NCBI GenBank assembly: GCA_030699345.1
Contig: JAUYMX010000301.1
Span: forward strand, 1-40,129
Direction of reading: 5' to 3'
Source: Methylococcaceae bacterium
GTDB taxonomy: Bacteria; Pseudomonadota; Gammaproteobacteria; Methylococcales; Methylomonadaceae
Length of the DNA stretch: 40,129 nt
Below the pieces are notes generated by a model, which ran no database searches, was not told the origin of the DNA, and saw only the letters and a list, made by a program, of their open reading frames with translations. Each line of letters begins with the position of its first letter. Positions within the stretch are counted from its first letter, which is position 1. Position numbers and translations under genes: made by a program. Shown here piece by piece: positions 8,245 to 37,476 of this stretch.

Positions 8245-8274
8245 TGCCCTATTTTGACGACTAGGCAAGACCTG

Positions 8275-8319: not shown

Positions 8320-8322
8320 AGC

Positions 8323-15956: not shown

Positions 15957-17000
15957 GTGAAAGAACAAGACATATTAGGTGGTGCGATAAGTGCATTAAC
16001 ACTAGCTACAGGCATCGTGATAGGGGTAGAGCGCCATGAGTATAGGCAAGAAAACTTAATTTTTGATGCAACAGGCAGCTTATATGTTGATGGTGAGCAA
16101 ATACCACTTGTTATTGAAGTTAAGTTTAGGCCGACACCTACGATACTTATGCTGTCAAAGCTAAAGGATATTCCGGGGCGATTACTTATAGTTGCTGATT
16201 ATGTAAATCCAAAATTGGCAGAACAACTAAAGGAACAGGATATTTGGTTTTTGGATACTGTAGGTAACGCATATATAAACCAAAAGCCCGTGTTTGTATT
16301 CATTAGAGGAAATAAGCCGACAGAAAAGCCAGTTATACGTACTCTAGGCCGTGCATTTCAACCCACAGGACTGAAGATTATTTACACCTTTCTGTGCAAT
16401 CCAGAGCTAGTTAATGCGCCCTATCGTGAAATTGCTCGAACAGCAGGTGTTGCATTGGGCACGGTAGGCTGGGTAATGACAGACCTTAATGAACTAGGAC
16501 ACCTTGTCGATATGGGCAATCGAGGTCGCCGCTTAAAAGATAAACAGAAATTGTTAGAGCGCTGGATTATTGCCTACTCAGAAAAGTTACGTCCCAAGTT
16601 GCAAACAGGAAGGTACAAAGCGCCAAACCCAGCCTGGTGGCAGACAGCCGATTTGCATAATTTACAAGCTTACTGGGGAGGTGAAGTAGCCGCCGATAAG
16701 TTAACACATTATTTAAAACCGGAAATCATCACTTTATATGTGATGGAAAAATGGGCGGCCAAGCTAAAAATCACCAATCAATTAAGAAAAGATCCAGACG
16801 GCGACGTGGAAATACTCAATGCTTTTTGGGACGTTGAGAGTGAAAAAAATAGAAAAGATATTGTTAACCCAATATTGATATACGCCGACTTGATGGCAAC
16901 CGGCGACCCCAGAAACATTGAAACAGCTCAAATTATTTATGAACAAAAACTTGCTCAACATTTCCGGGAAGATCAGCGAGCCGATAATCAAAGTTTATGA
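15957..17000 (+). CDS. wHTH-containing protein, putative regulator/antitoxin partner of the downstream nucleotidyltransferase (AbiEi-like arrangement)
   Basis: 347-aa ORF in an AT-rich segment with a GTG start. The central segment YREIARTAGVALGTVGWVMTDLNELGHL looks like a winged helix-turn-helix. It is immediately followed by, and probably overlaps, an NTase-fold gene. The functional label is inference. Confidence 0.4.
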   Translation: MKEQDILGGAISALTLATGIVIGVERHEYRQENLIFDATGSLYVDGEQIPLVIEVKFRPTPTILMLSKLKDIPGRLLIVADYVNPKLAEQLKEQDIWFLDTVGNAYINQKPVFVFIRGNKPTEKPVIRTLGRAFQPTGLKIIYTFLCNPELVNAPYREIARTAGVALGTVGWVMTDLNELGHLVDMGNRGRRLKDKQKLLERWIIAYSEKLRPKLQTGRYKAPNPAWWQTADLHNLQAYWGGEVAADKLTHYLKPEIITLYVMEKWAAKLKITNQLRKDPDGDVEILNAFWDVESEKNRKDIVNPILIYADLMATGDPRNIETAQIIYEQKLAQHFREDQRADNQSL

Positions 17001-17811
17001 ATTGATTAAAGAAGTAGCCAACCAAAACAACGTGAAATTTTTTGTTATTGGTGCGACAGCCTGAGACATGGTGTTTGAATACGGCTACGGCATACCAGCA
17101 TCCAGGGCGACAGGAGATATTGATTTAGCAGTTCAAGTTGCAACATGGACTGAGTTTCAAAGCCTAAAAAACGCATTAATAGCAACAGGACAATTTGTAA
17201 TCGATAAAATGATGCAACGTGTTGTGTACTACCAAAACGATATACCAATAGACATTGTCCCATTCGGAGCTATTGAAAATGAAAGCAATATTAGCTGGCC
17301 GCCGGATGGTAGCTTAAAAATGAATGTTGCAGGATTTAATGATGCTTTTTACTTCACCCAAACCGTCAGGTTACGCGAAAACCCCAAATTAGAAATTCAA
17401 GTTGTCACTCCCGCCGCACTGGTGATTTTAAAGCTAATGGCATGGCAGGATCGGTCATCAGAACATAACAAAGATGCCATTGATTTAGCTTTTATTTTAC
17501 GCTGGTATCTGGACACAGGGCATACCGAAAGATTAACAGAGCAACATAACGATTTATTAGATGATGATTTTGATTTCGAGCTGACAGGCGCAAGACTTTT
17601 AGGCCGCGATATTGCTGGTATCGTTTCAGTGCAAACCAAACAAAAATTGCATGAAATTTTAAGCATAGAAACTGGCGAACAAAAACAATATCGGCTGATT
17701 GAGGCGATGACAAACCGACAAAATGGACAGACGTTTGAAAAAAACTTGGCACTGCTACAGCACTTATATTTAGGCTTTAACGAAACAAAAGATAACAAAC
17801 TTCAGAATTAG
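16939..17811 (+). pseudogene. Nucleotidyltransferase-fold protein (AbiEii/MNT-like) interrupted by an in-frame TGA at 17062-17064
   Basis: The track ORF 17068-17811 starts with MVFEYGYGIPASRATGDIDLAV (NTase G..D.D motif). The same frame upstream reads MNKNLLNISGKISEPIIKVYELIKEVANQNNVKFFVIGATA-TGA-D-MVFEY. The N-terminal helix and the first strand of the fold therefore lie before a stop codon. Confidence 0.55.
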
Positions 17812-17891: not shown

Positions 17892-20198
17892 ATGAGATTT
17901 ACCGCTAACGCGTTGAAACTGTCACCAATCAAGCCAGCACTGTTAGCCGCTGTGTTACTGCTATTGATCTGGCTGGGTTTGGGTCTTACCCCTCAACCCC
18001 TGCTGGTTAACCGCGCCAACGGCTCTTATGCCGTTACCGACAACAACGGCCATTTGTTGCGGTTGAGCCTGACGTCTGATGAAAAATACCGGCTATGGAC
18101 GCCGCTGGTCGAGCTCCCGCAAACCTTACAAAATGCCACCTTGCATTACGAAGATCGCTGGTTTTATCAACATCCTGGCATCAATCCGGTAGCTTTGTGC
18201 CGAGCGGTTTTGAGCAGTCTGGTTCCCCATAATCGCTGGATGGGCGCATCGACATTAACTATGCAATTGGCCCGCCAGCGTTGGCGGCTGAAGACGGATA
18301 CCGTTACCGGCAAGCTGAAACAGATGGCTTATGCCTTGTGGCTGGAACGGCATTTCAGCAAAACCGAACTGTTGCAGGCCTATTTAAACCTTGCACCTTA
18401 CGGCGCCAACATTGAAGGCGCGGGCGCTGCCGCCTGGGTTTATTTTCACAAACCGGTGTCGGCGCTTAGCCAGGATGAAGCCCGCGCGCTGGCATTGATT
18501 CCACAAAATCCCAGTGCGCGGGCGCCGATGACTCCGGCGGCGTTGCAACGGCTGCGTCAGGCTTGGCGAACTGCCTACGGCGATGATCCGGGATTCGACA
18601 GACTTTGGTTTAGGTTGCGTAAAGATCTGCCGTTTCGAGCGCCGCATTTTTCCGAACGACTGCATGCGCTTCATCCAGACGCGGCAACGCTGCCTTCGAC
18701 GCTGGATACTACCGTTCAGGAATTAAGCGAAGAATTGCTGGCCGGATTTTTACGCCAGCATCATCTGCAAGGCGTTGTTAATGCCAGTGTGATGGTGGTG
18801 CATGCGCCGAGCATGTCTGTGTTGGGTTATGTGGGGTCTGCGGATTATTTCAATCGGGATATTCAAGGCTATGTTAACGGCTTGAAAGCCCCGCGTTCGC
18901 CCGGTTCCACGCTTAAACCTTTTATTTATGCGCAGGCCATTGCGCAAGGGTTGATTACGCCGGATACCCGCGTTAAGGATACGCCGTTGCGGATGGGCGA
19001 TTACCAGCCGGAGAATTTCGAACGCAATTTCTACGGGCCGTTGTCGGCGACCGATGCGTTGGTACGCAGTCGTAATATTCCGGCGATCAGTTTGTTGGCG
19101 CAACTGCAAAAACCGACTTTTCACCAGTTTTTACTACAACCGGGCATACCTATTCCTAAGCAAGCGGCCAATTACGGACTGAGCTTGGCGATAGGCAGTG
19201 CCGAGATTTCGATGGAAGATTTACTCAGGCTGTATGGCTTGCTGGCTAATAATGGCGAGTTGAAAGCGTTGCGCTGGTTAAACCAAACCGACCCATCACC
19301 GCAAGCGAATAAGCCGCTATTACTGCCGGAAGCGGCGTTTTTAGTGAGGGAAATGCTGGAAACCAATCCACGCCCGCAACGCAGTTTTGGCGGGCGTAGT
19401 TTCGGTCAACAGCAAGCGGTCGCCTGGAAAACCGGTACGTCTTCGGGCCTGAAGGATGCCTGGGCCATCGGCATCATGGGTGATCTAATGGTTGGCGTTT
19501 GGGCGGGTAATTTCGACGGCAGCCCCAATCGTCATTTAGTTGGTCGGGAATTGGTCGGCCCCTTGTTGTTTGGCGTTCTCGATGCCATCGCTATGGAACG
19601 TCCGATGGCCGACTCTGATGCAAAATCGCCCACCGGCCTAAAGCGTATAGAAATCTGCCCGTTATCCGGTCAGCCTGTTTCGCCCTGGTGTCCGCGTGGC
19701 AAAACCGGCTGGATTATTCCGGGCGTATCACCGATTAAAACCTGTACCCTCCACCGCCGGATCAGGATTAATCCGGCCAACGGTTTACGCCTGTGTCCGG
19801 ACGATCAACGCCAAGGCGAAACGCGGGTGGCAGAATTTTGGGACAGCGATGAATTAGAGTCTTTTCGCCAAGCCGGAGTGCGGCGCGACAATCCACCCGC
19901 CTTCGAGCGTTCATGTGACGATGCAACCGAAAGCAATGCCGCCGCCAATCCGCCCAAGATTGTCTCGCCGCAGGCGGGAGTGAGTTATCCGGTCAGGGCG
20001 GGGCAGCAAAACACCATAGAATTTAGCGCCATCTCTGCGGGCGGACGACATCGTTTATTTTGGTTTGTAGACGATGATTTTATCGGCGAAGGCACTACGG
20101 TATTTTGGCCCGGTAAACCCGGCCAGTTTGCAGTCGCGGTTATTGACGATCAGGGGCAGTCGGCCAGTGCCGCTTTTAAGGTGGTGCCGACCGATTAA
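17892..20198 (+). CDS. pbpC: Penicillin-binding protein 1C (bifunctional glycosyltransferase/transpeptidase)
   Basis: GT51 motifs EDRWFYQHPGINP and GASTLTMQLAR. Transpeptidase motifs SPGSTLKP (SxxK), SRN and KTGTS. It has a C-terminal extension of the PBP1C type, an N-terminal membrane anchor, and a macroglobulin gene upstream. Confidence 0.9.
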   Translation: MRFTANALKLSPIKPALLAAVLLLLIWLGLGLTPQPLLVNRANGSYAVTDNNGHLLRLSLTSDEKYRLWTPLVELPQTLQNATLHYEDRWFYQHPGINPVALCRAVLSSLVPHNRWMGASTLTMQLARQRWRLKTDTVTGKLKQMAYALWLERHFSKTELLQAYLNLAPYGANIEGAGAAAWVYFHKPVSALSQDEARALALIPQNPSARAPMTPAALQRLRQAWRTAYGDDPGFDRLWFRLRKDLPFRAPHFSERLHALHPDAATLPSTLDTTVQELSEELLAGFLRQHHLQGVVNASVMVVHAPSMSVLGYVGSADYFNRDIQGYVNGLKAPRSPGSTLKPFIYAQAIAQGLITPDTRVKDTPLRMGDYQPENFERNFYGPLSATDALVRSRNIPAISLLAQLQKPTFHQFLLQPGIPIPKQAANYGLSLAIGSAEISMEDLLRLYGLLANNGELKALRWLNQTDPSPQANKPLLLPEAAFLVREMLETNPRPQRSFGGRSFGQQQAVAWKTGTSSGLKDAWAIGIMGDLMVGVWAGNFDGSPNRHLVGRELVGPLLFGVLDAIAMERPMADSDAKSPTGLKRIEICPLSGQPVSPWCPRGKTGWIIPGVSPIKTCTLHRRIRINPANGLRLCPDDQRQGETRVAEFWDSDELESFRQAGVRRDNPPAFERSCDDATESNAAANPPKIVSPQAGVSYPVRAGQQNTIEFSAISAGGRHRLFWFVDDDFIGEGTTVFWPGKPGQFAVAVIDDQGQSASAAFKVVPTD

Positions 20199-20297: not shown

Positions 20298-20420
20298 TGT
20301 CTCAATCAACCAGTAATCTACAGGCATTCAAAAAACCAAGCGGTTGATTGCTTTGGTCTTTAGTAAAAATGGTTCGGGGGGCGCGTTTTACCCCTGTGTT
20401 GTTATTTCAAAATCAGAACA

Positions 20421-20634
20421 GTGGCAAAAGCCAAACCTATCGTGAGGTAGGGACGGAAAACTTCGGGTCTTTATCGATGAAAAAGATCGATTAAAAAGGA
20501 GAGCCTCGAAAACCCTGCACTTCGATAAACTCAGTGCGAACGGTGTCTTATAAATAAGTTCCGTTCGTGGTGAGCTTGTCGAACCATGAACGGAGTGGGT
20601 TTTTCGAGGTTTCCAAAGATAGCCGGGTTGCCAC
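20421..20634 (+). ncRNA. GEMM-I (c-di-GMP-I)-like riboswitch aptamer, copy 1, interrupted by a 106-bp MITE
   Basis: The 5' half is GUGGCAAAAGCCAAACC-UAUC-GUGA-GGUA-GGGACGGAAAACUUCGGGUCUUU. The 3' half, AAAGAUAGCCGGGUUGCCAC, resumes only after the MITE. GUGGCAA (20421-27) pairs perfectly with UUGCCAC (20628-34). The aptamer ends 23 nt before the ATG at 20658. Confidence 0.55.
20504..20609 (+). mobile_element. MITE-like element, copy A, with terminal inverted repeats CCTCGAAAACCC / GGGTTTTTCGAGG
   Basis: 106 bp with 12-13-bp terminal inverted repeats and an internal palindrome CCGTTCGTGGTGAGCTTGTCGAACCATGAACGG. A collinear copy in the opposite orientation lies at about 7982-8244. Confidence 0.65.
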
Positions 20635-20657
20635 CTTATTAACGTAAGGACTTATTA

Positions 20658-21251
20658 ATGCAAGGAAATAACTGTATCAAATGTGGCTTGGTCTTGATGT
20701 TGCTATCAGTCGTCAATACTGGCAACGCTTCAAGTAAGGCATTTAACGAATCATCGTTTTTAATTGTTAATGAAAGCGTTGCTATTGATAGGTTTCAGTC
20801 CGGCTTTAATGCCGCAAATCAATTAAAGGCATCGTTAAGCTCGACAACCGGAAGCAGTATTTCAGCTGTGACGGGCAGTAAAAATGCATGGGCGATCCAA
20901 ACGAATTTATGGCTGCTTAACGCTAATAAACCGGCTGGTAATCCGCAAGCACTCATTGAACCCTTTGCCAATAGCGCCTTAGCTTTTAACACAGGATCGA
21001 CTTGGGATGCGATGGGTGAAAAGCAATGGCTGGCAGATTGGAGCGTTAGCGTCAGCAACATTATTAATACCTTAAGTGTTAGTGCGGTTACGGTGTCGGT
21101 TATTTCAATGCTTGGTTCATCAGAGATTCTCGCGGCTGTAGCTACTATCTCAGCTGTTCCGTTATCAACTTTAGTTTGGGTATTTCTTACCGGTTTAATG
21201 ATCTTGCTCGCCACTCGCCGCAAACATGCGGTGTTAGGGATAGTGGCGTAA
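20658..21251 (+). CDS. Secreted protein with a PEP-CTERM-class C-terminal sorting signal (degenerate VPL variant)
   Basis: N-terminal signal peptide. The C-terminus ISAVPLSTLVWVFLTGLMILLATRRKHAV has a short motif, a hydrophobic helix and a basic cluster, which is the architecture of exosortase substrates. Confidence 0.6.
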   Translation: MQGNNCIKCGLVLMLLSVVNTGNASSKAFNESSFLIVNESVAIDRFQSGFNAANQLKASLSSTTGSSISAVTGSKNAWAIQTNLWLLNANKPAGNPQALIEPFANSALAFNTGSTWDAMGEKQWLADWSVSVSNIINTLSVSAVTVSVISMLGSSEILAAVATISAVPLSTLVWVFLTGLMILLATRRKHAVLGIVA

Positions 21252-21309
21252 TAACTGATTGGATTGTCTTGATGTATTCGAAATTGCTAACGAACTTCTT
21301 CAGGCAATG

Positions 21310-21386
21310 GTAGGGGCGGGCCTTGCCTGCGAACAATAAAATCTAAATTGCCGTATTGGATAATCGCGGGCAAGGCCCGCTCCTAC
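21310..21386. repeat. REP-like long palindrome (GTAGGGGCGGGCCTTGCC ... GGCAAGGCCCGCTCCTAC)
   Basis: Arms of about 20 bp in inverted orientation flank an AT-rich spacer of about 35 bp. Confidence 0.7.
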
Positions 21387-21439
21387 TGGGTTTTCAATAA
21401 GCATGAGTAGACCGCCAAGGATGAAATGACGGTTAGGAT

Positions 21440-21484
21440 GTAGGTGCGGATTTATCCGCACTGGGCGAATAAATTCGCCCCTAC
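21440..21484. repeat. REP-like palindrome pair (GTAGGTGCGGATTTATCCGCAC / GGGCGAATAAATTCGCCCCTAC)
   Basis: Same family and organisation as 8275-8319. Confidence 0.8.
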
Positions 21485-21596
21485 ATTATCGCCTTATTCG
21501 ACAGCACGCTTAGGCAGCTCGGCCTGCAACAGCGCAGGTTTGGGCTGGAATTATTAGGGCGAGCAGCGTCCGTCGTTGGTTAATGAAGATGCTGAT

Positions 21597-21639
21597 TATG
21601 TAATACATGTCATCAAACTGTAACCAAGCTGTCACCGAA
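21597..21639 (+). promoter_or_regulatory. Conserved leader box (copy 2) upstream of riboswitch-like copy 2
   Basis: ATGTAATACATGTCATCAAACTGTAACCAAGCTGTCACCGAAA parallels 20255-20297. A second shared box AAAAATGGT.CGGGGG.CG follows in both leaders (about 20364-20383 and 21783-21806). Confidence 0.3.
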
Positions 21640-21855
21640 ACAACACAACAACTCTGGAATAATTCGCACCAAGTTGAGGGCGGCTGAATAGGGTTATGAC
21701 TTAACGAATTGGATGTAACTAGGGAACAAGGATGGCACGAATAGGGAGTGGGCTTTGGAAGATAGTAGGGAGTAAGTCGGGGTAAAAAAAATGGTAGCGG
21801 GGGCGTAGGCGGCAGTGTTTATCTGTTAGATGGTGTCGGGCAGAATTATAAGTGT

Positions 21856-21937
21856 GTAAAAGCCAAACCTGTTGTGAGGCGGGGACGGAAAGTTACAGGT
21901 CTTGATAGATAACACTCAAGACGGCTGGGCCATCACC
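21856..21937 (+). ncRNA. GEMM-I (c-di-GMP-I)-like riboswitch aptamer, copy 2
   Basis: GUAAAAGCCAAACC-UGUU-GUGA-GGCG-GGGACGGAAAGUUACAGGUCUUGA-UAGAUAACAC-UCAAGACGGCUGGGCCAUCACC. It has a GNRA-capped first hairpin, an ACGGAAA junction and a 7-bp second stem with a GG bulge. It ends 47 nt before the ATG at 21985. Confidence 0.6.
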
Positions 21938-21984
21938 TTGTGTAAATAATACTTTTTATTTTTTAAACATAAGGCATTAAATCA

Positions 21985-22770
21985 ATGAAACAATTTTCTA
22001 AATCTTTATTAGCAGTTGCTTTGTTAGCGGCTACAACTGGCGCGGCTAACGCAAGTATTAATACTAGCAGCGCCACAGCCGCAGAAGCCTATCTGTCTGT
22101 CTATGATTCGAGTCAAAAATTAACTTTTACCCTGGATTTGGGGTTGGCTATGGGCGATCTGACTGACAATATCAGCAACGCTGACTTTAGCAGAACATAC
22201 GATTTATCTAGTAATGCAATGTGGAATTCTTTTTCCAGTAATTTGAACACAGCAACAACCGTTTATGGTGTTGTTGTTGGTTTTGGTACTAAGGTGTTGG
22301 CAACTGGTCCCGCTGTCAGTGTGCCCAAATTCAGTACGGTTGCAACTGCTTCAGGAGCTGCAACTGCTATCAAAAATCATGCATCTGCAATTAACAGCGG
22401 CGCAGGGGTTGATAATCCTGGCGTAGCTAATATCGTAGCCAACCAGTTGAGTTCATTAGTTGCCGATGGCGATACTGCAAATACTGGGCAACATAATCAA
22501 AATAACCCATTTAGCACTCTTTTTGGAACTAAAAGTGATGCTGCTGCCAATCTTATTTATGGCAAGGACTATCAAGATCTGGGCATAAATAATTTTTGGT
22601 TATACAACTCAAATGCAGGCACTCAAGCATTTGCAACTCAATGGAATTTGGTAGGCAGCGAACTAAGTTTAAAAGTAGCAGCAGTGCCATTGCCTGCTGC
22701 GGTTTGGATGTTTGGCGCCGGTTTGATGGGCGTATTAGGTCTTACTCGTCGTAAAAACGCTGCTGTTTAA
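21985..22770 (+). CDS. VPLPA-CTERM (PEP-CTERM class) sorting-domain protein
   Basis: Signal peptide MKQFSKSLLAVALLAATTGAANA. The C-terminus VAAVPLPAAVWMFGAGLMGVLGLTRRKNAAV is a textbook VPLPA-CTERM signal. Confidence 0.8.
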   Translation: MKQFSKSLLAVALLAATTGAANASINTSSATAAEAYLSVYDSSQKLTFTLDLGLAMGDLTDNISNADFSRTYDLSSNAMWNSFSSNLNTATTVYGVVVGFGTKVLATGPAVSVPKFSTVATASGAATAIKNHASAINSGAGVDNPGVANIVANQLSSLVADGDTANTGQHNQNNPFSTLFGTKSDAAANLIYGKDYQDLGINNFWLYNSNAGTQAFATQWNLVGSELSLKVAAVPLPAAVWMFGAGLMGVLGLTRRKNAAV

Positions 22771-22846
22771 GCGTTGAACTTAGGAGGGGTGTTTTAGCAT
22801 TCCCATTCCCTCCGCTTTATTTAACTGATTCCAAGTGAGAAATCCA

Positions 22847-24493
22847 ATGAAAAAATTAGTTTTAGGCGCAGCCATCGCTGCGGCGTTAACAGCCACGGCT
22901 GCTCAAGCGGCAATTTCCGTTGATGCCAATGGCGTGCCAGTTATTAACCCAGCTGATACCAACATTTTGTATTTATCTGGTGCTTCTGCCGCAGAAAAAT
23001 TCATCGAAAAAGTAATCACCGATACGTCAGTGCCTGCGGTTGATAAAATTTGCGACACTTCTAAAAAGATGTATAAGTTTCAAGATCCCGGTGCGATATC
23101 GCAATATGCCTATTTGTGCGAAAGAGCCACGACTAACCCTGCCGTACCTAGCAATAAAGCCAATATTCTGATCTATAAACGCAGTGCCGGTGGTTCTGCG
23201 TTTGGTGTTAGCCCAATTGTGGCTGAAGCTAATGGTAATACAGCGGCTGCAACGATTGAATTTTTGAAAATCAGCTCTGCATGTACAGTGACTACTCCTG
23301 CTCTCGCGGGTGCATTAACTAAAATTAGCTGCGCTTACGATCCTGCCGATGCAACTAAACATGTAGTGCATATTCCTGATTTCGGTATCTCTGACGTCGA
23401 TCCTGGTCAGTTCAGCGGTAACAATGCACCGATTGATTCGTCAACCGGCTCTCCTTATGAGAATGTAACGATTGATGATGTCGCGAAATTGACGGTAAAA
23501 AGTGCTTCTGCGCTGACCTTTGGCGTGCCTGTCACCAAAAACTTGTATTTTGCGTTGCAAGCGGCACAAAAATCCACAGGCGCAGTGCCTGCTACTTGTG
23601 TAGTGGGTGATGAAACTGAAGCCTGTATGCCTAGCTTGAGTTCTGCGCAAGTGGCTTCTATTCATGCTGGTGCCATTGTTAATTGGAACCAATTAAAAGT
23701 CGGTACGGTTGGTTTGTATGACTGGGTGAATACCCCTGCAAACGGCGCTAGCGCTTATGCACCAGGTGCGCCTTATTTGCATACTTGCCGTCGTGAAAAC
23801 GGTTCCGGTACGCAAGCCCAATCCAATATTAAGTTCTTAGCTGATCCTTGTACTGCAGCCGCCGCCGGAACTCAGCCAGCAGGTGATGTTGGTGCCCTGG
23901 GATTGGGTGAAGGTGAGGGCTATCCAATGATTCACGAAAACAACAGTTCAGGTAACGTGGATCTTTGTTTGAATGAATTGCAAGATGGTACTAACGCTCC
24001 AAATGCTTTTGAAAATACTTACGGTGTCCGTTGGGCAGTCGGTATTCAGTCATTGGAAAAATCAACAGCAGCAGCTACTAAATACCGCTTTGTTAAATTG
24101 GACGGTGTCGCACCTACTTTGGCTAATGTGGTTAAAGGTAAATACCGCGATTGGGCAGAAAACACTTTCCAATACGGCAACACGCATGTCTTTTCTAGTA
24201 ACAGCACTGAAAACACAGCCTTGAAAGCCTTGACTAATGCGATTATTAAATCATCTGGCGCACCAGAAGTAATGGCCGCGTTGAACAATGGCTTTTCTCA
24301 TACTTTTACAACTGCTAAAGGCGCTTATTTGGCAGTACCTACCAACTATGATCCACAACCAAATGGTGCTTTCTTGTCTACAAGACCGGTGAATCCATTC
24401 AGCCATGCAACGTCTGCTGTATCGGTTGATAACTGTCGCGTACCTTCCATTTATAACAATGGTGCAATCGGTTCAGGTGACACTGGCTTGTAA
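22847..24493 (+). CDS. Secreted protein with a PstS-like (type 2 periplasmic binding fold) region
   Basis: Signal peptide MKKLVLGAAIAAALTATAAQA (the ATG at 22847 is preferred over the GTG at 22835). Segments LYLSGASAAEKFIEKV, GISDVDPGQF and RRENGSGTQAQ resemble the PstS/PBP_like_2 pattern (G.Sa...l...., R...SGT). There is no C-terminal sorting signal. The assignment is weak. Confidence 0.35.
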   Translation: MKKLVLGAAIAAALTATAAQAAISVDANGVPVINPADTNILYLSGASAAEKFIEKVITDTSVPAVDKICDTSKKMYKFQDPGAISQYAYLCERATTNPAVPSNKANILIYKRSAGGSAFGVSPIVAEANGNTAAATIEFLKISSACTVTTPALAGALTKISCAYDPADATKHVVHIPDFGISDVDPGQFSGNNAPIDSSTGSPYENVTIDDVAKLTVKSASALTFGVPVTKNLYFALQAAQKSTGAVPATCVVGDETEACMPSLSSAQVASIHAGAIVNWNQLKVGTVGLYDWVNTPANGASAYAPGAPYLHTCRRENGSGTQAQSNIKFLADPCTAAAAGTQPAGDVGALGLGEGEGYPMIHENNSSGNVDLCLNELQDGTNAPNAFENTYGVRWAVGIQSLEKSTAAATKYRFVKLDGVAPTLANVVKGKYRDWAENTFQYGNTHVFSSNSTENTALKALTNAIIKSSGAPEVMAALNNGFSHTFTTAKGAYLAVPTNYDPQPNGAFLSTRPVNPFSHATSAVSVDNCRVPSIYNNGAIGSGDTGL

Positions 24494-24547
24494 GTTTAGC
24501 TAAGCCGGGGCAATCCCGGTTTGAGTCAAGGATGACTCAAAATGAAT

Positions 24548-24579
24548 AAAACCAGCCGTTTTAGGACGGCTGGTTTTCT
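24548..24579 (+). terminator. Rho-independent terminator after the PstS-like gene
   Basis: AAAACCAGCCGT-TTTAGG-ACGGCTGGTTTTCT: an 8-bp GC-rich stem extended by A/T pairs, followed by a T-run. Confidence 0.8.
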
Positions 24580-24599
24580 GCGTTGGAGCTAAGCAAGAT

Positions 24600-24704
24600 G
24601 TAGGTGCGAATTTATTCGCACTAAGCAAGGACGTAGGGTGGATAAGCGCAGCGCATCCACCGATAGACTACGACTTGTGGATGCGCTGCGCTTATCCACC
24701 CTAC
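24600..24704. repeat. BIME-like REP cluster
   Basis: GTAGGTGCGAATTTATTCGCAC comes first. It is followed by GTAGGGTGGATAAGCGCAGCGCATCCACC and its inverted copy GGTGGATGCGCTGCGCTTATCCACCCTAC, forming arms of about 29 bp. Confidence 0.85.
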
Positions 24705-24861
24705 AACTGGTCTCTGTGCTCAGGCCGGTAATTGTTAATGCAACCGGCAATAAATAAGCGAACGTAACCCCGTTGTCACAATAGCTTAACGTAAGCTCAA
24801 TAAAATGACGGACTAGCGGTTTTCAAAGGGAAAACCGGCACACACAGACAAAATAGATGTC

Positions 24862-26526
24862 ATGCAGTTAAAAAGAATTAAGACGGGCCTGCCTTTAATT
24901 TGGCTGGTCTGCTGTGCTTTTACAGTGGTGGGTAATGCGTTCGCCGAACAGGCTGCGCAGTCTGCCCCAGCTAATGTAGAAGCTGCACAAGATGCTTCGG
25001 CTGAACAGCAAGCTGCGCCCGAGCAACCGGCTACTTTCGATTTGTTGGAATTACGAGTCAAGGGCAATAACCTGATCGACAAAAAACAGTTGGAGCGGAC
25101 TATTTATCCATTTTTGGGGCTAAAGAAAAGCGTCGACAATGTTGAGGCTGCGCGTGCGACATTAGAAGAGCTCTATAAGACACAAGGCTATCAAACCGTT
25201 TCCGTGGATATTCCTGAACAGGATGTTAAAAACGGCATCGTTTATTTACAGGTAGTCGAAGGCAAAATTTCTAAATTACGAGTGAAAGATGCCCGTTATT
25301 TCTCGCTGGGCAAAATCAAGGCGGCCGTGCCGGAGTTGGCGGAAGGTAATGTGCCTAACTTCCCGAAAATGCAGAAACAATTGGCAGAACTGGGCATTGA
25401 GAGCCCAGATCGGCAAATTCAGCCGGTATTGCGGGCAGGGGACACGCCAGGAACGCTGGAAGTTGATTTAAAGGTCAAAGACGAATTGCCATTGCATGGC
25501 AAGGTTGAACTCAACGGCCGTAATACCTCGACGACCAGTCGTTTGCGTTTGGTGTCGTCATTACGTTACGAAAATCTCTGGCAGGCCATGCACAGTGCTT
25601 CGTTGATGTACCAGGTTTCACCGGAAAACAGCGCTGAAGTTGATGTTTGGGCGGGGACTTATGCCTTGCCGTTGTTTAGTAGCGATGCACGACTGGCATT
25701 TTATGGGGTGAGTTCATCGTCAAGTGCCCAGATTGCCAGTGCCGGGGCATTGTCGGTGATTGGTATCGGTAATATTTATGGACTTAGATTAGTGAAGCCG
25801 TTGACGCCGATAAATGACTATTTTCACAGCGCTACCTTGGGTGTCGATTACAAAGACTTTCAAGAAGACGTCAACCTGATCGGTGCCGACAATATCAAAA
25901 CCCCCATCAGCTATTTACCGTTCATGGCTCAGTACAGCGGCAGTTTACGGACTAAAGAGTCAGAAACGACATTCGATGTAGGCGCACATTTTTCGTTCCG
26001 TGGACTGCTGAACGATCAAAAGCAATTCGAAGATAAACGCTTTCTGGCCAAAGCCAATTATTTGTACCTGACCGGCGATCTTAGGTTTCAGCATGAATTG
26101 CCGTTTGGCATGGAAGCGGTCAGCCGTGTTGCCGGGCAGGTTTCTGATACGCCGCTAATCAGTAATGAACAATTTTCGATGGGTGGCGCTGAAAGTGTGC
26201 GTGGGTATTTTGAAACACAGTCATTAGCTGATGATGCCTTGTTCGGTTCTTTAGAGCTGCATTCGCCGCATTTAGGTGCCGCTGATTGGGATTATCTTAA
26301 TAATTTGAAATTGTTAACGTTTGTGGACGTGGCTAAAGGCTGGGTTAAAAACCCGCTGCCGGGTAATTCTTCAGGCGATTTTATTAGTAGCGCGGGGATA
26401 GGGATGAACTTTCAGATGTGGAAACATCTGAGTGGTGTATTGAATGTCGGGTTTCCTTTTAACGCATTAGGCCCGGTAAAAAGCGGCGATCCCCGACTGC
26501 ATTTTAATATTGCTACTGATTTTTAA
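24862..26526 (+). CDS. TpsB outer-membrane transporter (ShlB/FhaC/HecB family) of a two-partner secretion system
   Basis: 554 aa with a signal peptide. The POTRA-like region is FDLLELRVKGNNLIDKKQLERTIYPFLG...YKTQGYQTVSVDIPEQDVKNGIVYLQVVEGKISKLRV. The C-terminal beta-barrel region ends in F. A TpsA gene follows. Confidence 0.8.
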   Translation: MQLKRIKTGLPLIWLVCCAFTVVGNAFAEQAAQSAPANVEAAQDASAEQQAAPEQPATFDLLELRVKGNNLIDKKQLERTIYPFLGLKKSVDNVEAARATLEELYKTQGYQTVSVDIPEQDVKNGIVYLQVVEGKISKLRVKDARYFSLGKIKAAVPELAEGNVPNFPKMQKQLAELGIESPDRQIQPVLRAGDTPGTLEVDLKVKDELPLHGKVELNGRNTSTTSRLRLVSSLRYENLWQAMHSASLMYQVSPENSAEVDVWAGTYALPLFSSDARLAFYGVSSSSSAQIASAGALSVIGIGNIYGLRLVKPLTPINDYFHSATLGVDYKDFQEDVNLIGADNIKTPISYLPFMAQYSGSLRTKESETTFDVGAHFSFRGLLNDQKQFEDKRFLAKANYLYLTGDLRFQHELPFGMEAVSRVAGQVSDTPLISNEQFSMGGAESVRGYFETQSLADDALFGSLELHSPHLGAADWDYLNNLKLLTFVDVAKGWVKNPLPGNSSGDFISSAGIGMNFQMWKHLSGVLNVGFPFNALGPVKSGDPRLHFNIATDF

Positions 26527-26589
26527 GTTTGAAAGGCCCGCTTCTACGGGCTGGATAAAGATTTTTGGTAACTATTCAGTTTCTTGATT

Positions 26590-26912
26590 GAGCTGTCATG
26601 CGTAAATGCGGTGGATGCGCGTTGCTTATCCACCCTACACAATAGACGCATGGCTTTAGTCAGGTTAAAGACTGAATTGAGCCGTCATGCGTAGGCTGGA
26701 TAAGCGCTAGCGCATCCGGCAAATGCGGTGGATGTGCGTTGCTTATCCACCCTACACAATAAACGCATGGCTTCAGTCAGGTTAAAGACTGAATCGAGCC
26801 GTCATGTGTAGGCTGGATAAGCGCTAGCACATCCGGCAAATGCGGTGGATGCGCGTTGCTTATCCACCCTACACAATAAACGCATGGCTTCAGTCAGGTT
26901 AAAGACTGAATA
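26590..26912 (+). repeat. Tandem array of REP-pair units (one 89-bp unit plus two 117-bp units)
   Basis: The unit is GAGCCGTCATGCGTAGGCTGGATAAGCGCTAGCGCATCCGGCAAATGCGGTGGATGCGCGTTGCTTATCCACCCTACACAATAAACGCATGGCTTCAGTCAGGTTAAAGACTGAAT. Units start at 26590 (lacking one REP arm), 26679 and 26796. Confidence 0.9.
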
Positions 26913-26933
26913 GTTACAGATTTTTATTGTGTT

Positions 26934-27004
26934 AATGCTAAACCCGTTGCGAGGCGGGGACAGAAAACCGCGGATCTTGCTGAGCAAGACGGCCGGGTTG
27001 CAAC
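26934..27004 (+). ncRNA. GEMM-I (c-di-GMP-I)-like riboswitch aptamer, copy 3
   Basis: AAUGCUAAACC-CGUU-GCGA-GGCG-GGGACAGAAAACCGCGGAUCUUGC-UGA-GCAAGACGGCCGGGUUGCAAC. The 3' GACGGCCGGGUUGC resembles the conserved 3' box of GEMM-I as I recall it. It ends 40 nt before the tpsA ATG at 27045. Confidence 0.6.
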
Positions 27005-27044
27005 TAACTAAAGCGTGTTAATTATTTTTGGTAAAGGTAACCCC

Positions 27045-30000
27045 ATGTCTCAGAAAACGCAGCCAACTCAACATAAGCCCGTAGAAAATCAGTTCAGGTT
27101 AAAACCCTCGGTTGCATGTATAAAACTGGTAATCACCGGTGGTTTGTTTGCAAGTGCAGTGGCACCGGTTTATGCCGAATTACCGGTTCCTGTGCCGGGA
27201 CAAGGTTGGGTCAGCTCCGGTAGCGCCAGCAGCCAAGTGTTGGGCAACACCCTGCGTATTGATCAGACCACCGATAAAGCCATTCTTAACTGGCAAAGCT
27301 TTAACGTCGGCAAGGAAAATACTGTGCAGTTTGTGCAGCCCGGTAGCTCGTCAGTCGCACTAAACCGCATTAATCAGGAAAACCCCAGTCGAATTCTTGG
27401 TCAAATTAAAGCCAACGGCCAAGTGTATCTGTACAACAAAAATGGCTTTGTGTTCGGTAAGGATTCGGTGGTCAACACCAACAGTCTACTTGCCAGTACC
27501 CTGAATATCACTGATGACGTATTTAATCGCGGCATTACCCGCGTATTCGATGAAAACGGTAGTGCGGCGCTAGCCATTGAGCCAATGCAGGCAGGCGATG
27601 CGCTGGATCCAAAAAACGCTCAAATCCTGATTGAAGCCGGTGCCAAAATTTCCACCGATAAAAACGGCCGCATCATTATTGTTGCGCCGACTATCGAGAA
27701 CAAAGGCTCGTTGTCTTCTGATACGCAAGGCCAGATTATCTTGGCGGCCAGTCAGGACAAGGTTTATTTACAGGCGGCCGACAAAAATGACCCGTTCGCA
27801 GGCTTGGTTGTGGAAGTCGATACCGGCGGTAAGGTGACCAATGCCGGTGATATTCTGGCGCGGCAAGGTAACGTCACCATGGCCGGTTTTGCTGTCAACC
27901 AGCAAGGCCGTGTCAGAGCAACGACCTCGGTGAGTGTCAATGGCTCGATTCGCTTGTTGGCGCAAGAGCAACATGGCACGCAAGGCAATAAGTTGGTGGC
28001 GACCAAAACTGATCGCGATACCGATCTAAACGACGGTTTGGGCACCAAAGCCACCACTACTTTAGCAACCGGCAGCGTTACCGAAATCGTTGCGGATGTT
28101 GACGGCGGCAGCGCCATTGACGAGCAGGCCCAGCCTGACTCTTATTTGCAGGTGACGGGCAATACCGTACATGTGCAAGCCGGTGCCACCATTAAAGTGC
28201 CGGGCGGCAAAGTAAATATCACCGCGACTGATAATTTGGCTGATGCCAAACAAGGCACCAAAGGCCGAATTCTTGTTGATAAGGGCGCAGTAATTGATGT
28301 GTCCGGCTATAAAAATGTGGCGGCGGCGATGGAGCGTAATGTCGGCGAGATTTCTGCCCAAAGTTATGATTTACGTGATTCCCCGTTACAAAGAACCGGT
28401 GTTTTGAAAGGCGAAACCCTCAAGGTGGATTTGCGTAAGGGCTCAGATATTGTTGATACCAGCGGCGCAGAAGCCCGTATTTCACGTGGCATTAATGAAC
28501 GCTTGGGCGACGGCGGCGAGATTAATCTAACTGCCAGCGGCGATTTGATTATCAACGACGGCGCCAAAATTGATATTTCCGGCGGTTCTGTGGCTTATCA
28601 GGACGGCTACATCAATACCACCAAGCTGCTGACTAGCTATGGACGCATTGTTGATATTAGCGATGCCGATCCCAATGAGCATTATGTGTCTATTTTTGGT
28701 CAGGTTAATGAGAGCCACAAGAAATGGGGCGTCGAAAGAATCTGGAATATGTTGGGTAATGGTGCGGGTCAGTTTCAGCGCGGTTACGTTGCAGGTAAAA
28801 ATGCCGGTATCTTGAATATTAAAGCGCCCAAGGTGGCTTGGAATGGCACGCTAATAGCAGGCAGCAGTGCCGGTCAATTTCAACGCGAGCTGGCGAACAC
28901 GCCTTTCGGAGGCCGCCTTGATGTTGATATGGCGGTTTTCCAGTCAGTGCAAAATGTTAAGTTTCAGAACGCGGGCCAGCAGACGCAACTTGCCCTGGAT
29001 GACCTGTTTCCCGAGCGTGATGCTCAGCAGCCCGCCGACCTGATCTTGTCTGCAGCATTGTTAGGCAATTCCGGAGTCGAAGCGGTATCGGTAAAAACGT
29101 TTGGCGACGCGACGTTGGTTGAAGGCGCCAACATTACCATGCAACCTCGCGGCAGTTTAGCGGTGGAAGCAGGCAATATTGATGTTAACGGCAGTTTTAA
29201 AGCCGCCAGCGGCAGTATCAACTTAAAAGCGGCGACTAATTCGTTATCTGCAAACGCGGGTTTGCTGAACATTAACTCCGGAGCCGTGTTGGATGTCTCG
29301 GGTCGGTGGGTTAACGACATAAAACAAGGGCTGTCTGCATTATTGACCGACCCACTGGCGATTGCAGGTGGATCGGTCAAGGCTGAAGCCGAGGGTGATT
29401 TAAAGGTCAAGGCGGGGTCAGTCATTCGTGCCGATGGCGGTGCCTGGCTGCCGTTGAGTAGTAAATTGCAAGCCGGTACAGGCGGTGACATCACGCTGGC
29501 GGCTAAAGGTGACGGTACTTTTGCATCGACCTTGACGCTAGCTGGAGAAGTCTCAGCTTATGGTTTGGAACAGAACGGCAGTTTAACGCTGGAAAGCGGC
29601 AAAATTATTGTCGGTACGCCCACCGCCGATGATGTCACTGATCAGGCGTTGGTTCTGGGTGTGTCTAATGGCAATTTCGACTTCTCTCAAAAGCTAGCGT
29701 TTAACCAGATTAATTTAGTGGCCGATTTTGACGATTTAACGGTCAAATCTAACGTTAATTTGAATTTGCGGGCGAAAAATCTCCAACTTAAACCTGGCTA
29801 TTTAACAAAAGCTACCGGCAGTTCATTACGCGACTTTACAACGGTTGTTGAATTGCCGGAGCATTTACGCCAACCGCTGCAAATCAATATGGAAGGCAAT
29901 TCCGGGGTAAAGATTGAAACCGGCAGCGCTATACGTACCGATAAGGGCTCTACGATCAGCTTGTTGAGTCAAGCCGGCAGTATTTTCGTTGGTGGTTTGT

Positions 30001-33000
30001 TGGAGGCAGCCGCCGGTCAAATCAAACTGGCGATTAAACCTTCATCTGGTTTGGAATACGATCCTAAGCAAACCATCTGGGTCGGTGGGAACGCCCAATT
30101 ATTAGCGCAAGGCACTACACGGTTGAATCCGGCGGATGCTTTCGGGCATCGTACCGGTGCGGTATTGAATGGTGGTGAAATCAGTTTTGATGCTCAGCGT
30201 GGTGCAGTGGTGCTGGAGCAAGGCTCGCTGCTTGATGTATCAGGCACGAGTGCAACGCTGCATATATTGCAACCGGCAAAGAATGCGGCTGCCGATTACG
30301 TGACGCAAACCATTGCTTCCGACGCCGGTAAAATTAAGCTGACAGCGGCTGAAGGCATTGTCATGGATGGCACGTTGCGTGGTGCGGCGGGCTCGAGCAA
30401 AGCTCATGGCGGCAAGCTGGAAGTCACGCTGGATCAAGCCAAACGCAATCCGCCGGATGATCCGCAAGTCCCTTTTCCTAACAATCCTTTGATAATCAAT
30501 GTGACTCAAGTGGCACGACGTTCATTGGAAGAAGACGTTAACCCCGGTGATGACTTTCCGCTTGCTCTGAATGGACAGGCAACCTTAAACGCCGACAGTA
30601 TTCGTGCCGGCGGTTTTGCCGATCTGAGCCTTAGTACAAAAGATCAGGTGGTGTTTATTGGCGACGTCAATTTAACGACGGCTGAGCGTATCAGCATTGA
30701 TACAAAACTTATCAGTGCTAGTGGTGATAATGGCGGTGACGCCGGTAACATCAATCTCAACACCAACTTCCTGCAGATGGGATCGTCCTTGAATCGGACG
30801 CTTGCCGATTCTGCACAGACCGGCAATGGCCAATTCACCGCCAATGCCAAATGGCTGCAATTAAAAGGCGCGACCCAGTGGGACGGTTTTAAACGCATTG
30901 CGTTGAATAGTGAGCATGATATTCGCACCGTCGGTTTGCGTAACGCTGATGAGCAGCGCGATTTTGCCGGTGGCTTAGTGACGGCGGCTGATCTGGCATT
31001 AAACGCCAGCCAGATTTATCCATCAACATTAACTGATTTCACTTTCGCGGTTAAAAACAACTCCGACGGTAAAATCGATATTACCGGTCGCAACACCGAT
31101 ACCTCGCCATTATCGGCAGGCGGCACATTGACATTTGAAGCGGCGGTTATCAATCAAAAAGGAGTGCTAAAAGCGCCGCTGGGCACGATTAACCTTAAAG
31201 CAAGCAAGAGCTTAACGCTTGAGGACGGCAGCCTGACTTCCGTGTCAGCGAAAGGCCAAACAATTCCATTTGGCGTAACCCAGGGCGGCCTGGATTGGTT
31301 ATATCCGTTGGACACCTTGAGAAACCTGGTGTTCGATGCTGCGCCGGAAAAACGCATGGTGTTATCGGCACCTGAGATTGTCGCCAAACAAGGCAGTGTG
31401 GTTGACATCTCCGGTGGTGGCGATTTGGTTTCATATGAATTTGAGGCTGGCGCAGGTGGTTCTTTTGATTACTTACAACCCGGCAGTGCGTCTTATCAAG
31501 GCGGCTTTGCTGTGTTACCGACCTTGGGTTCACAGCTGGCCCCGTATGACCATTATGAAAGTCAGGGGTTTGCCTACGCGCCCGGTAGTACGGTTTATTT
31601 AAGCGGTAGTCCGGGATTACCTGCCGGTGAGTATGCAATATTACCGGCCCGATATGCGTTGTTGCCGGGGGCATTTTTAATCACGCCGCAAGCCAATACT
31701 CAAGATTTGGCGGTGGCTCAGTACACTGTTGATGGCTTGCCTATCGTACCTGGATACCAAAAGCTTGCGGGTAATGATATTCGTGATGCGCGCACCAGTG
31801 GCTACCGAATTGAAAGCCGGGCGGATGTGCTTCAGCACTCAAAATACAACATAAATACCGCTAATCAATTTTACCAAGCACGCGCCCAGAAGAACGAAAC
31901 AGCGACGCCAGTGTTGCCGATGGATGGCGGGCAAATTTCTTTGATCGCGCAAACAAAACTGATTATGGATGGGCAGTTTATGGTTGATGCCTTAACCGGC
32001 GGCCGCGGCGCTAAAATGGATATTGCCGCCAACCGAATTTCTGTGGTTAATCAATTGAGTGAGACCCCAACTGACGGAATACTAGAAATTTTGGTCGGGG
32101 ATTTAAGCGATTTACATGTCGACAGTTTGTTGCTCGGTGGCGCGCGCAGTCGCAACACAACCAACAGTGCTGAAACCGATATTGATGTGTCCGCTCAAGA
32201 GGTGGTGTTTACAACTAATACCCACTTGCAGGGCCCTGAAATCATACTGGCAGCAACCGGCTTGGTCGAAGTTCAGGCAGGCGCGAGCTTGGATGCCAAT
32301 CAACAAGCCCGAAGCGGCGATAGTGTCTTGAATGTCAAAGGTGATGGTGCCTTGCTGCGGCTGTCTGGTGATAAACAAGTGGTGTTAAATCGTACCGAAA
32401 CGTCCGGCGCTTCCGGCGAATTGAAGCTTGCCGCTGGTTCGACAGTAAAAGCATCAGAGTCAATGTTGCTGGATGCTAGTTATTCGACTGAGATTTTAGG
32501 TGATATTCAAATGCAGGGCGGCTCGTTAAATCTGGGCGCTAATACCATCAACATTGGTGAAGTCGACAATGTAGGCGGCAATGCGCTGAATCTGTCCAAC
32601 CTAAAATTAGCGAATTTGGCTGTCGACGAACTGGTACTGACCGGTCGGGACAGCATTGGTATTTACGGCAATGTCGGCCAGGTCAATGCGGACGGCTCAT
32701 TGATTACCGATATTAATGGCCAGTCGCAAGCTATTAAATTCGATCGCCTGGTCATTAATACGGCAGGATTTACCGGTCACGGCACTGAGTCTGATAGCGC
32801 CAAGCTCCAGGCTGGTAGTTTGACTGTGCAAAACACCGCGGCGGCAACCAATCAGCAAGTTGTTGACGGGCAAGGACAGTTGGAGTTGCAGGCCGATAGC
32901 TTCAAGGTAGGCAGCGGCAACTTCGCGATTCAAGGTTTCAACGGCGTTAACATTAACGCAGCTAAAGAATTCCGGGCTGCCGGTAAGGGCAGTGTCGATG

Positions 33001-37255: not shown

Positions 37256-37360
37256 GTAGGGTGGATAAGCAACGCGCATCCACCGTATCCACTGCATTTG
37301 CCGGATGCGCTACCGCTTATCCAGCCTACGCATGACCGCTCAATCAAGGGACTGAATAGG
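37256..37360 (-). repeat. Inverted copy of the 117-bp REP-pair unit found at 26590-26912
   Basis: GTAGGGTGGATAAGCAACGCGCATCCACC...GCATTTGCCGGATGCGCTACCGCTTATCCAGCCTACGCATGACCGCTCAATCAAGGGACTGAATAGG is the reverse complement of the array unit. The match includes its 5' flank AACTATTCAGTTTCTTGATTGAGC at 26571, apart from a short insertion. Confidence 0.85.
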
Positions 37361-37476
37361 CACAAAATTTTAACGATTTCTTAAAGCGTATTTTCAGTAA
37401 AAAATCCTCTAATTGTCATATTCATGTAACGAACTGTTGTGATAATGCAGCTATAAATTTATTTTTGAGAGCAAGC

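Follow-up and report, generated by a model that had tools for sequence, protein, structure and literature searches.

Three aptamers of the c-di-GMP-I riboswitch class in the leaders of surface-protein genes of a Methylococcaceae bacterium

The window analyzed here is a stretch of 40,129 nucleotides (nt), contig JAUYMX010000301.1 of the Methylococcaceae bacterium assembly GCA_030699345.1. It contains three aptamers of the cyclic dimeric guanosine monophosphate class I (c-di-GMP-I, GEMM-I) riboswitches, located in the 5' leaders of three separate surface-protein units. We consider it quite likely that these aptamers bind the canonical ligand, c-di-GMP, and that they act as translational ON switches. 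They are listed below with their positions in the window; R1 is a covariance model made from the three copies.

20421-20636, plus strand: aptamer 1, c-di-GMP-I class (partial RF01051 match, RF03167 alignment, R1 model)
21852-21937, plus strand: aptamer 2, c-di-GMP-I class with U92 (RF01051, 47.2 bits, E 3e-6 with cmscan over this span)
26927-27005, plus strand: aptamer 3, c-di-GMP-I class (RF01051, 53.8 bits, E 6e-8 with cmscan over this span)

The first-pass annotation of this DNA had described one structured motif of about 75 nt, similar in layout to GEMM-I, in front of three genes with start codons (ATG) at 20658, 21985 and 27045. The start codons and the gene identities hold. The split motif was located correctly, but copy 1 is 216 nt long, with the extra length coming from a 120-nt insertion. 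A search with Rfam covariance models had been proposed as a check, and it gives significant matches for all three leaders. When the whole window is scanned with cmscan at the gathering threshold, RF01051 (c-di-GMP-I, GEMM-I; gathering score 35 bits) is the sole family detected, with three matches at or above this score, all of them on the plus strand. The match to aptamer 1 (35.2 bits, E 2e-3, 20420-20498) is a forced local solution which ends early; its score is borderline because the RF01051 model is unable to bridge the insert. With laxer filters, a sister model of the same clan, RF03167, spans aptamer 1 from end to end, 20421-20636, with 50 bits (E 5e-9), leaving 144 nt unaligned in the P3 loop, and R1 gives it 89.5 bits. 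No fourth copy is found in the 40-kb window, either in the Rfam scan with laxer filters or in a search with R1. Sub-threshold Rfam matches to mir-3165, mir-7961, naRNA4 and NrrF were discarded as noise or repetitive extragenic palindromic (REP) elements.

The layout described for this class is a P2 stem of 2 + 6 base pairs (bp) with a 3-nt GAC internal loop and a GNRA loop, an AAA linker and a second hairpin with an AG/GG bulge (PMC1950547). All three copies present this layout, with the AAA linker in each. As previously noted, base changes between the copies keep the pairing, and all the stems quoted at the time form in a pair-by-pair check. In copies 1, 2 and 3, respectively, hairpin 1 pairs CCUAUC/GGUAGG, CCUGUU/GGCGGG and CCCGUU/GGCGGG, with GUGA, GUGA and GCGA loops; hairpin 2 pairs UCUUU/AAAGA, UCUUGA/UCAAGA and UCUUGC/GCAAGA; the outer pairs are CGG/CCG, CAG/CUG and CGG/CCG. 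The only non-standard pair in the three aptamers is one A.C in copy 3. P1 corresponds to GU(G)G/CAC in aptamer 1 (20421-20424 with 20632-20634) and to GUG/CAC in aptamer 2 (21854-21856 with 21934-21936), where G21856-C21934 is in the normal register.

Relatives were sought in the genomes of 185,579 species using only the junction boxes, AAGCCAAACC followed by 10-16 nt and GGGACGGAAA, with unconstrained stems. At least 120 loci carry this CC..GG box subtype; Thermodesulfobacteriota, Campylobacterota, Nitrospirota, Nitrosospira, Methylococcales and others are among the matches listed. With R1, 99 loci were searched, and almost all of them gave full-length aptamers. In an alignment of 112 aptamers from more than 100 genomes, which is fitted to the R1 model, standard pairs occupy 95.7% of the pair cells, compared with 31-49% when the partners are slid by 1-3 columns. 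Changes on both sides are found at 16 of the 20 pairs, and none of 500 shuffles reaches the observed covariation values. In orthologous leaders, where conservation of pairing had been suggested as another check, the paired positions are kept, with compensatory changes. Separate Rfam scans of the relatives agree with the c-di-GMP-I assignment. The covariance-model matches and the covariation in the 112 aptamers thus bear out the earlier opinion that the motif is an RNA fold, not a protein-binding site.

Key positions were assigned by transferring the numbering of Vc2 to Rfam columns via PMC3764141, which fits a constant offset of 9. In Vc2, G20 is found in J1-2, C44 in the P2 internal loop, A47-A49 in J2-3 and C92 in J3-1; G83 is bulged in P3, and G14-C93 is the top of P1 (PMC3764141). 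The corresponding bases are G20 = 20430, C44 = 20454, A47 = 20457, G83 = 20622 and C92 = 20631 in aptamer 1; G20 = 21862, A47 = 21889, G83 = 21924 and U92 = 21933 in aptamer 2; and G20 = 26937, A47 = 26964, G83 = 26992 and C92 = 27001 in aptamer 3. All three copies have the bases for the interhelical pair, C44 and G83, and could form it. The canonical G20/A47/C92 set is complete in copies 1 and 3, while copy 2 has G/A/U. In the set of 110 aptamers used for all position tallies, G20 is found in 108, A47 in 110, G83 in 107, C92 in 103 and U92 in 5. Aptamers 1 and 3 should bind c-di-GMP, because they have the canonical contacts. The first-pass annotation considered that the ligand could not be read from the sequence. 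In fact, it is partly readable: the cyclic AMP-GMP (c-AMP-GMP, cGAMP) type, GEMM-Ib, is ruled out by the G at position 20 of all copies, as A20 is its signature, and the GGC variant (RF03167) is ruled out by A47, also present in all copies, since the variant consensus has G there. Only copy 2 departs from the canonical set.

It had also been noted that the boxes differ from those of GEMM-I. This is correct: the pair closing P2 is flipped from G21-C46 to C21-G46, which explains the GCCAAACC...ACGGAAA boxes, and in copy 3 only, C22-G45 is also replaced by U22-A45, so that its P2-closing pairs are C-G and U-A. Nevertheless, C21-G46 is a widespread natural subtype, carried by at least 120 genomes in the box scan, and there is no sign of a new class. 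GYRA tetraloops are found in 92 of the 110 aptamers. No tetraloop receptor of the CUAAG/UAUG type is found in P3 of the three copies, which is expected with GYRA loops and was noted for GEMM in 2007 (PMC1950547): the missing receptor is a trait of the subtype and does not disqualify these RNAs as members of the class.

The relation with RF03167 should be considered with care. The consensus of the position-47 box is GACGCGAA in RF03167 and GACGCAAA in RF01051; they differ at exactly the position-47 base, and from the comparison of these two lines we infer that a G in place of A47 defines the GGC variant. The RNAs described here read GACGGAAA or GACAGAAA at this box. With RF03167, the window copies score 53, 50 and 47.8 bits, all below the gathering score of 59. 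Some A47 relatives exceed it: the tpsA leader of Methylomicrobium lacus (M. lacus, complete genome NZ_CP169217; L097:1221-1298, 71.9 bits), the insert-free orthologue of aptamer 1 (L123:1658-1753, 63.8 bits) and a Methylomonas leader (L021:6403-6486, 60.2 bits). This cross-match is an annotation trap, as canonical A47 aptamers would be mislabelled as the GGC variant.

The insertion in aptamer 1 can be placed exactly:

20495-20614, plus strand: 120-nt insertion similar to a miniature inverted-repeat transposable element (MITE), distal 3' strand of aptamer 1 P3 (empty site in L123)

The empty site is found in a metagenomic leader, L123:1653-1758, whose flanks are identical to leader 1 with exactly 120 nt fewer. 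The insert is bordered by AAAG at both ends, has imperfect terminal inverted repeats (GGAGAGCCUCGAAAACCC / GGGUUUUUCGAGGUUUCC) and folds alone at -53.6 kcal/mol. It also has relatives: a diverged copy at 8151-8255 (minus strand), fragments at 8005-8047 and 8449-8478, and further matches in L123. Because of the empty site, the duplicated flanks, the inverted repeats, the self-folding and the related copies, it is a small MITE-like element, recently landed in the length-variable tip of P3. The same region of the window (7950-8480, 5' of the alpha-2-macroglobulin gene) also contains a direct repeat of about 130 nt, at about 8040-8150 and about 8330-8460.

In the predicted fold, the element pairs with itself and the core of aptamer 1 stays intact. 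We find it unlikely that aptamer 1 is a decaying pseudo-riboswitch, disabled by the insertion, with the 197 amino acid (aa) gene downstream constitutive or silent. Decay would be consistent with its distal P3 of 142 nt, the longest of the 110 (median 6; next 87, 46 and 42), and with the two P3 strands being separated by about 150 nt of transcription time. On the other hand, the insertion lies in the sole length-variable part of the aptamer, and distal segments of 42-87 nt are known there from other natural aptamers. In addition, the P3 3' strand is rebuilt thanks to the AAAG duplication, the inserted sequence makes its own hairpin, and the minimum-energy structure of leader 1 retains the aptamer. 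The flanks have no other mutation relative to the insert-free orthologue, although a very recent event would also fit. We thus favor an aptamer 1 which probably remains active. The presence of exactly 120 additional nt at the P3 tip in one leader, and their absence from the other, make for a natural experiment in riboswitch tolerance to insertions.

The sequences between the aptamers and the start codons contain the following expression platforms, in which the Shine-Dalgarno (SD) sequence may be hidden:

20634-20660, plus strand: platform 1, SD hairpin CCUUA/UAAGG, 20634-20638 with 20645-20649 (read from the sequence)
21936-21987, plus strand: platform 2, SD-sequestering hairpin CCUUGUGU (21936-21943) / ACAUAAGG (21967-21974) (minimum-energy folds)
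26994-27047, plus strand: platform 3, GGGUUGC (26994-27000) alternatively paired with GUAACCC (27037-27043) (minimum-energy fold)

Leaders 1 and 2 have the same arrangement: the P1 3' strand CAC continues directly into CCUU..., the 5' arm which pairs with the SD ...AAGG. In leader 1, the hairpin hides the SD UAAGGA and overlaps the P1 3' strand by one base, the first C of the hairpin being the last of the strand; the probability of an unpaired SD rises from 0.27 to 0.50, and does so only with P1 enforced. In leader 2, the hairpin competes with an extended P1 (21847-21852 with 21937-21942). Its SD is 94% paired in the free ensemble (probability unpaired 0.06), and this probability is 0.41 with aptamer and P1 enforced; the aptamer without P1 has no effect. 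In leader 3, GUAACCC sits between the SD AAAGG and the ATG, and the best duplex of the SD region is formed with the aptamer 3' strand (-15.2 kcal/mol). Terminator-based control was rejected, as none of the three aptamers is followed by a terminator-like site.

The platform 2 hairpin is also found in related leaders. The comparison was made with per-sequence folds; a whole-leader MAFFT alignment misplaced the platform arms. These are CCUUGUGU/ACAUAAGG in the window and L123, CCUUAUGU/ACAUAAGG in L138, CCUAGAUGGU/AUCAUUUAGG in L128 and CCUUG/CAAGG in L124. The SD hairpin is thus present, with compensatory changes, in four leader types, directly after P1. The extended P1 also covaries: UAUAAG(U)GUG with CAC-CUUGUG in the window, ACUAG(U)GUG with CAC-CUAG in L128. 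A more distant relative, L133, uses the aptamer 3' strand as the left arm of a classic terminator.

Translational ON control is the most likely reading of the three platforms as modelled, with comparative support for copy 2 only. ON logic is suggested because the SD hairpin abuts P1, the extended P1 covaries and the SD opens only with P1 enforced; it also follows from the L133 terminator. In leaders 1 and 2, the ligand would stabilize P1 (GUG/CAC, extended in leader 2), which shares bases with the CCUU... arm that hides the SD AAGG: formation of P1 would free the ribosome site. In leader 3, the ligand would keep the 3' strand GGGUUGC within P3; without ligand, this strand would pair with the spacer between SD and AUG. 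High c-di-GMP would then lead to more sorting-signal proteins and more TpsA adhesin. A competition model predicts more expression with more ligand (PMC1950547), and ON switching is documented for Vc1, located 5' of the gbpA adhesin gene (PMC4744006). The opposite logic appears rather improbable. In such OFF switches, the ligand-stabilized P1 would stack coaxially on the SD hairpin, or the folded aptamer would block loading of the 30S subunit, and c-di-GMP would lower expression. The P1 and SD hairpins of leaders 1 and 2 are indeed adjacent and overlap by one base only, the computed changes in accessibility are small, and c-di-GMP-I OFF switches exist in other species. Nevertheless, the extended P1 of leader 2 spans the whole anti-SD arm and covaries with it, and both the L133 terminator and the Vc1 switch mentioned above point to ON control. 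Besides, adhesins and matrix-type proteins are normally induced by c-di-GMP.

Aptamer 2 belongs to a clade of leaders with U92. This base is common to the leaders of all eight closest PepA-like orthologues: window copy 2, L122, L123, L128, L124, L131, L138 and M. lacus L097. Those from outside the window were retrieved via protein orthology, not RNA, except for M. lacus L097, which comes from the box scan. All of them read (A/G)-U-CAC with a 5' GUG, so that P1 is an invariant GUG/CAC in the clade; elsewhere it has no fixed register, and P1 covariation is uninformative. More distant relatives have C92 in their leaders, as do leaders before other VPLPA genes. Aptamers of the U92 clade are 55-72% identical among four lineages; their stems show compensatory changes, and variation is found at both J3-1 bases preceding position 92. 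The RF01051 gathering score is passed by all five U92-clade leaders scanned with Rfam and by an unrelated U92 leader, L019. The latter (L019:5564-5668, 42.3 bits) is from an Olavius-symbiont deltaproteobacterium and precedes the gene of an unrelated protein longer than 747 aa; therefore, U92 arose more than once. Selection on U92 is plausible but unproven, because 23 of the 34 unpaired columns of the clade are invariant anyway.

From this analysis, aptamer 2 would most likely keep c-di-GMP binding through a G.U wobble, with lower affinity. According to PMC9049102, which summarizes Smith 2010, the engineered C92U mutant of Vc2 retains c-di-GMP binding, with an increased dissociation constant. 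A changed ligand would require a less simple explanation: G20 would recognize guanine and U92 would form a Watson-Crick pair with adenine, so that aptamer 2 and its U92 orthologues would bind 3'3'-cGAMP, in mirror orientation to GEMM-Ib, or another dinucleotide containing A. Fixation of U92 in the eight leaders next to two varying bases would agree with it. Hidden specificity variants have precedent in this class (PMC5473149), and a Vc2 G20A/C92U double mutant gains c-di-AMP binding, according to the passages on it in PMC9049102 and PMC7288161, which shows that position 92 sets base specificity. Nevertheless, a changed ligand is improbable: the wobble with the normal ligand suffices, the paralogous leaders 1 and 3 of the same locus have C92, and the evidence comes from only four lineages. 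In addition, we know of no cGAMP synthase in Methylococcales.

We would thus keep c-di-GMP as the ligand of aptamer 2. We suggest, only tentatively, that the G20/A47/U92 aptamers in front of methanotroph PepA-like VPLPA-CTERM genes are a naturally selected, re-tuned GEMM-I subclass. In that case, the low-affinity option would turn on the floc/matrix protein only at higher c-di-GMP than TpsA and the 197-aa protein, both under C92 control, and the U92 sensor would make the response of the locus a staged one. Less probably, these aptamers would sense an A-containing cyclic dinucleotide, mirror-oriented to GEMM-Ib. In any case, three paralogous aptamers in one locus are a test bed for the tuning of c-di-GMP thresholds by single-base contacts.

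Several points weigh against our interpretation. The invariance of U92, as mentioned, concerns only four independent lineages and is shared by most unpaired columns. The computed thermodynamic effects are modest overall, with the accessibility from SD to AUG of leader 3 going from 0.41 to 0.53 only. Per-sequence folds show no SD hairpin in the U92 leaders of M. lacus and L131, and neither of the two other tpsA leaders found (L202 and M. lacus) shares the leader 3 platform. A scan for sigma-70-like promoters found none 5' of any of the three aptamers; such sites are fewer overall than in shuffles. Because of the insert, the P3 3' strand of aptamer 1 is transcribed later, which could hamper folding of this aptamer during transcription. 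Three close TpsA relatives in other Methylomonadaceae contigs (L203, L204 and L205) have no aptamer 5' of tpsA, not even in the 416-nt intergenic region before tpsA of L204; therefore, the tpsA riboswitch has been gained or lost on short evolutionary scales. Finally, we know of no experimentally tested member of the C21-G46 subtype.

The genes and other features of the locus are the following:

20658-21251, plus strand: 197-aa secreted protein (C-terminal AVPL-hydrophobic-RRK tail)
21985-22770, plus strand: 261-aa PepA-like protein with VPLPA-CTERM signal (TIGR03370, E 7e-5)
22847-24493, plus strand: 548-aa secreted protein (a gene call of 548 aa is also found in L001)
24548-24577, both strands: bidirectional terminator-like hairpin with a perfect 12-bp stem, followed on the plus strand by UUUUCUGCGUU
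24862-26526, plus strand: TpsB, ShlB/FhaC-type transporter (PF08479 and PF03865)
27045-37106, plus strand: TpsA, 3,353-aa filamentous-haemagglutinin-like exoprotein (PF05860 two-partner secretion (TPS) domain, PF12545)

The first two genes had been assigned to the PEP-CTERM class. This stands for the 261-aa protein, which also has a full-length but weak match to NF033554 floc_PepA (24.5 bits, cut-off 80), with PF07589 below its cut-off; its orthologue in M. lacus is 37% identical. The 197-aa protein has only the VPL-hydrophobic-RRK tail, AVPLSTLVWVFLTGLMILLATRRK, which resembles a VPLPA/PEP-CTERM signal; it has no match to a hidden Markov model (HMM), so the sorting signal is unconfirmed by HMM. 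A near-identical orthologue follows the insert-free aptamer in L123. The 548-aa protein has no Pfam, NCBIfam or PDB match. Its gene is probably co-transcribed with the PepA-like gene, and the protein may serve specifically as a partner for either the sorting-signal protein or the TPS system. A syntenic orthologue, 43% identical, lies between the PepA-like gene and tpsB in M. lacus, where the order is aptamer, pepA-like, a protein of 539 aa, tpsB, aptamer, tpsA. The nearest relatives of TpsA are found in Methylobacter, Methylovulum, Methylomonas and Methylocucumis. Judging from its sequence, the hairpin at 24548-24577 probably ends the leader 2 transcription unit before tpsB. This hairpin and REP-like palindromes separate both; therefore, tpsB is not safely part of the leader 2 unit. 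It is a member of the locus for which riboswitch control is at most a possibility. A weaker GGAGGG/CCCUCC hairpin with U-rich sequence is found at 22776-22815, directly 3' of the PepA-like gene, and could be a partial terminator. Such terminators are frequent after genes for abundant structural subunits.

A stretch of identical sequence is present in the metagenome-assembled genome GCA_030694625.1; from this and from the TpsA relatives, the host is a methanotroph of the Methylomonadaceae. The region 5' of the locus contains housekeeping genes and an alpha-2-macroglobulin/PBP1C pair (8787-15269 and 17892-20198), normally adjacent partners, which is split by an AbiEi/AbiEii type IV toxin-antitoxin module at 15957-17811. 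Directly 3' of tpsA, at 37465-39751, we find a proton-channel protein of the ExbB/TolQ type, which carries an N-terminal DUF2341 along with a laminin-G domain, and then ExbD; such an energizer pair beside a TPS adhesin is unusual. REP-like palindromes (for example, GTAGGGGCGGGCCTTGCC...) are found at 21300-21500, 24600-24705, 26690-26900 and 37259-37326, including two direct copies of about 117 nt each before aptamer 3, and the sub-threshold naRNA4 (RF02564) matches coincide with them. In spite of this abundance of palindromes, the idea that the three motifs are DNA-level sites, either protein-binding palindromes or REP-type elements, is refuted in practice by the covariance-model matches and massive covariation, and also disagrees with their strand specificity, their G.U pairs, their fixed position and orientation 5' of genes, and the better fold of the plus strand of leader 1 (-86.9 kcal/mol, compared with -69.1 for the minus strand).

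In other genomes, PEP-CTERM-like tails are found on 14 of 79 complete downstream open reading frames (ORFs), from several phyla, using crude ORF calling and tails detected by regular expression. Tandem C21-G46 aptamers also occur: three in Desulfosudis oleivorans (L094:7238-7521) and pairs in L058, L078 and L092; in the latter, both precede PEP-CTERM-tailed proteins.

A close known case is Methylophaga nitratireducenticrescens GP59, which has c-di-GMP-I riboswitches clustered in about 18 kb, each before a PEP-CTERM/VPLPA-CTERM gene (PMC12530212). Likened by its description, this cluster agrees with ours in having several such riboswitches before sorting-signal genes in a methylotrophic gammaproteobacterium; it differs in the genus, and no TPS adhesin, U92 variant or insertion is described there. 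The TpsB family, fhaC, was already among the original GEMM-associated gene families (PMC1950547). A coherent surface-remodelling module, as the first-pass annotation proposed, is thus reasonable but not new (PMC12530212, PMC1950547), and no exosortase gene is found in the window.

Our aptamers share with Vc2 (tfoY) and Vc1 (gbpA) of Vibrio cholerae the 2 + 6-bp P2, the GAC internal loop, the GNRA loop, the AAA linker, the bulged G83 with C44, G20/A47 in three copies and C92 in copies 1 and 3, as well as the site in the 5' untranslated region before surface or adhesion genes and, probably, the ON logic of Vc1. They differ in C21-G46 (and U22-A45 in copy 3), the GYRA loop without the 11-nt tetraloop receptor, U92 in copy 2, the 120-nt P3 insertion in copy 1 and the platforms, which are apparently translational and not terminator-based. 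Among the engineered Vc2 RNAs (C92U and G20A/C92U, PDB 3MUM/3MUR/3MUT/3MUV; Smith et al. 2010, as summarized in PMC9049102 and PMC7288161), the single C92U mutant has its natural counterpart in copy 2 and the orthologues of this copy, where U92 occurs naturally, is conserved in a gene-specific clade and is set in a C21-G46/GYRA background. GEMM-Ib has the same overall fold, belongs to the same clan and is frequent in Deltaproteobacteria, a group rich in the C21-G46 subtype as well; it is defined by A20, while the window copies and 108 of the 110 relatives have G20. The GGC variant likewise has a short receptor-less P3 and a modelled P1, and its model scores these RNAs about as well as RF01051 does, but its consensus has G at the A47 equivalent, where every RNA described here has A.

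In summary, the three aptamers add members to an established riboswitch class, and their gene context is also of a known kind. The c-di-GMP-I class has been characterized since 2007-2009, and our findings leave knowledge of the class itself unchanged. The conserved U92 sub-lineage, the precisely datable P3 insertion and the RF03167 cross-match are points of some interest. The locus would be a clean methanotroph example of c-di-GMP acting directly on the mRNA leaders of sorting-signal proteins and a TPS adhesin, linking second-messenger signalling to floc/biofilm matrix proteins in a group important for methane cycling.

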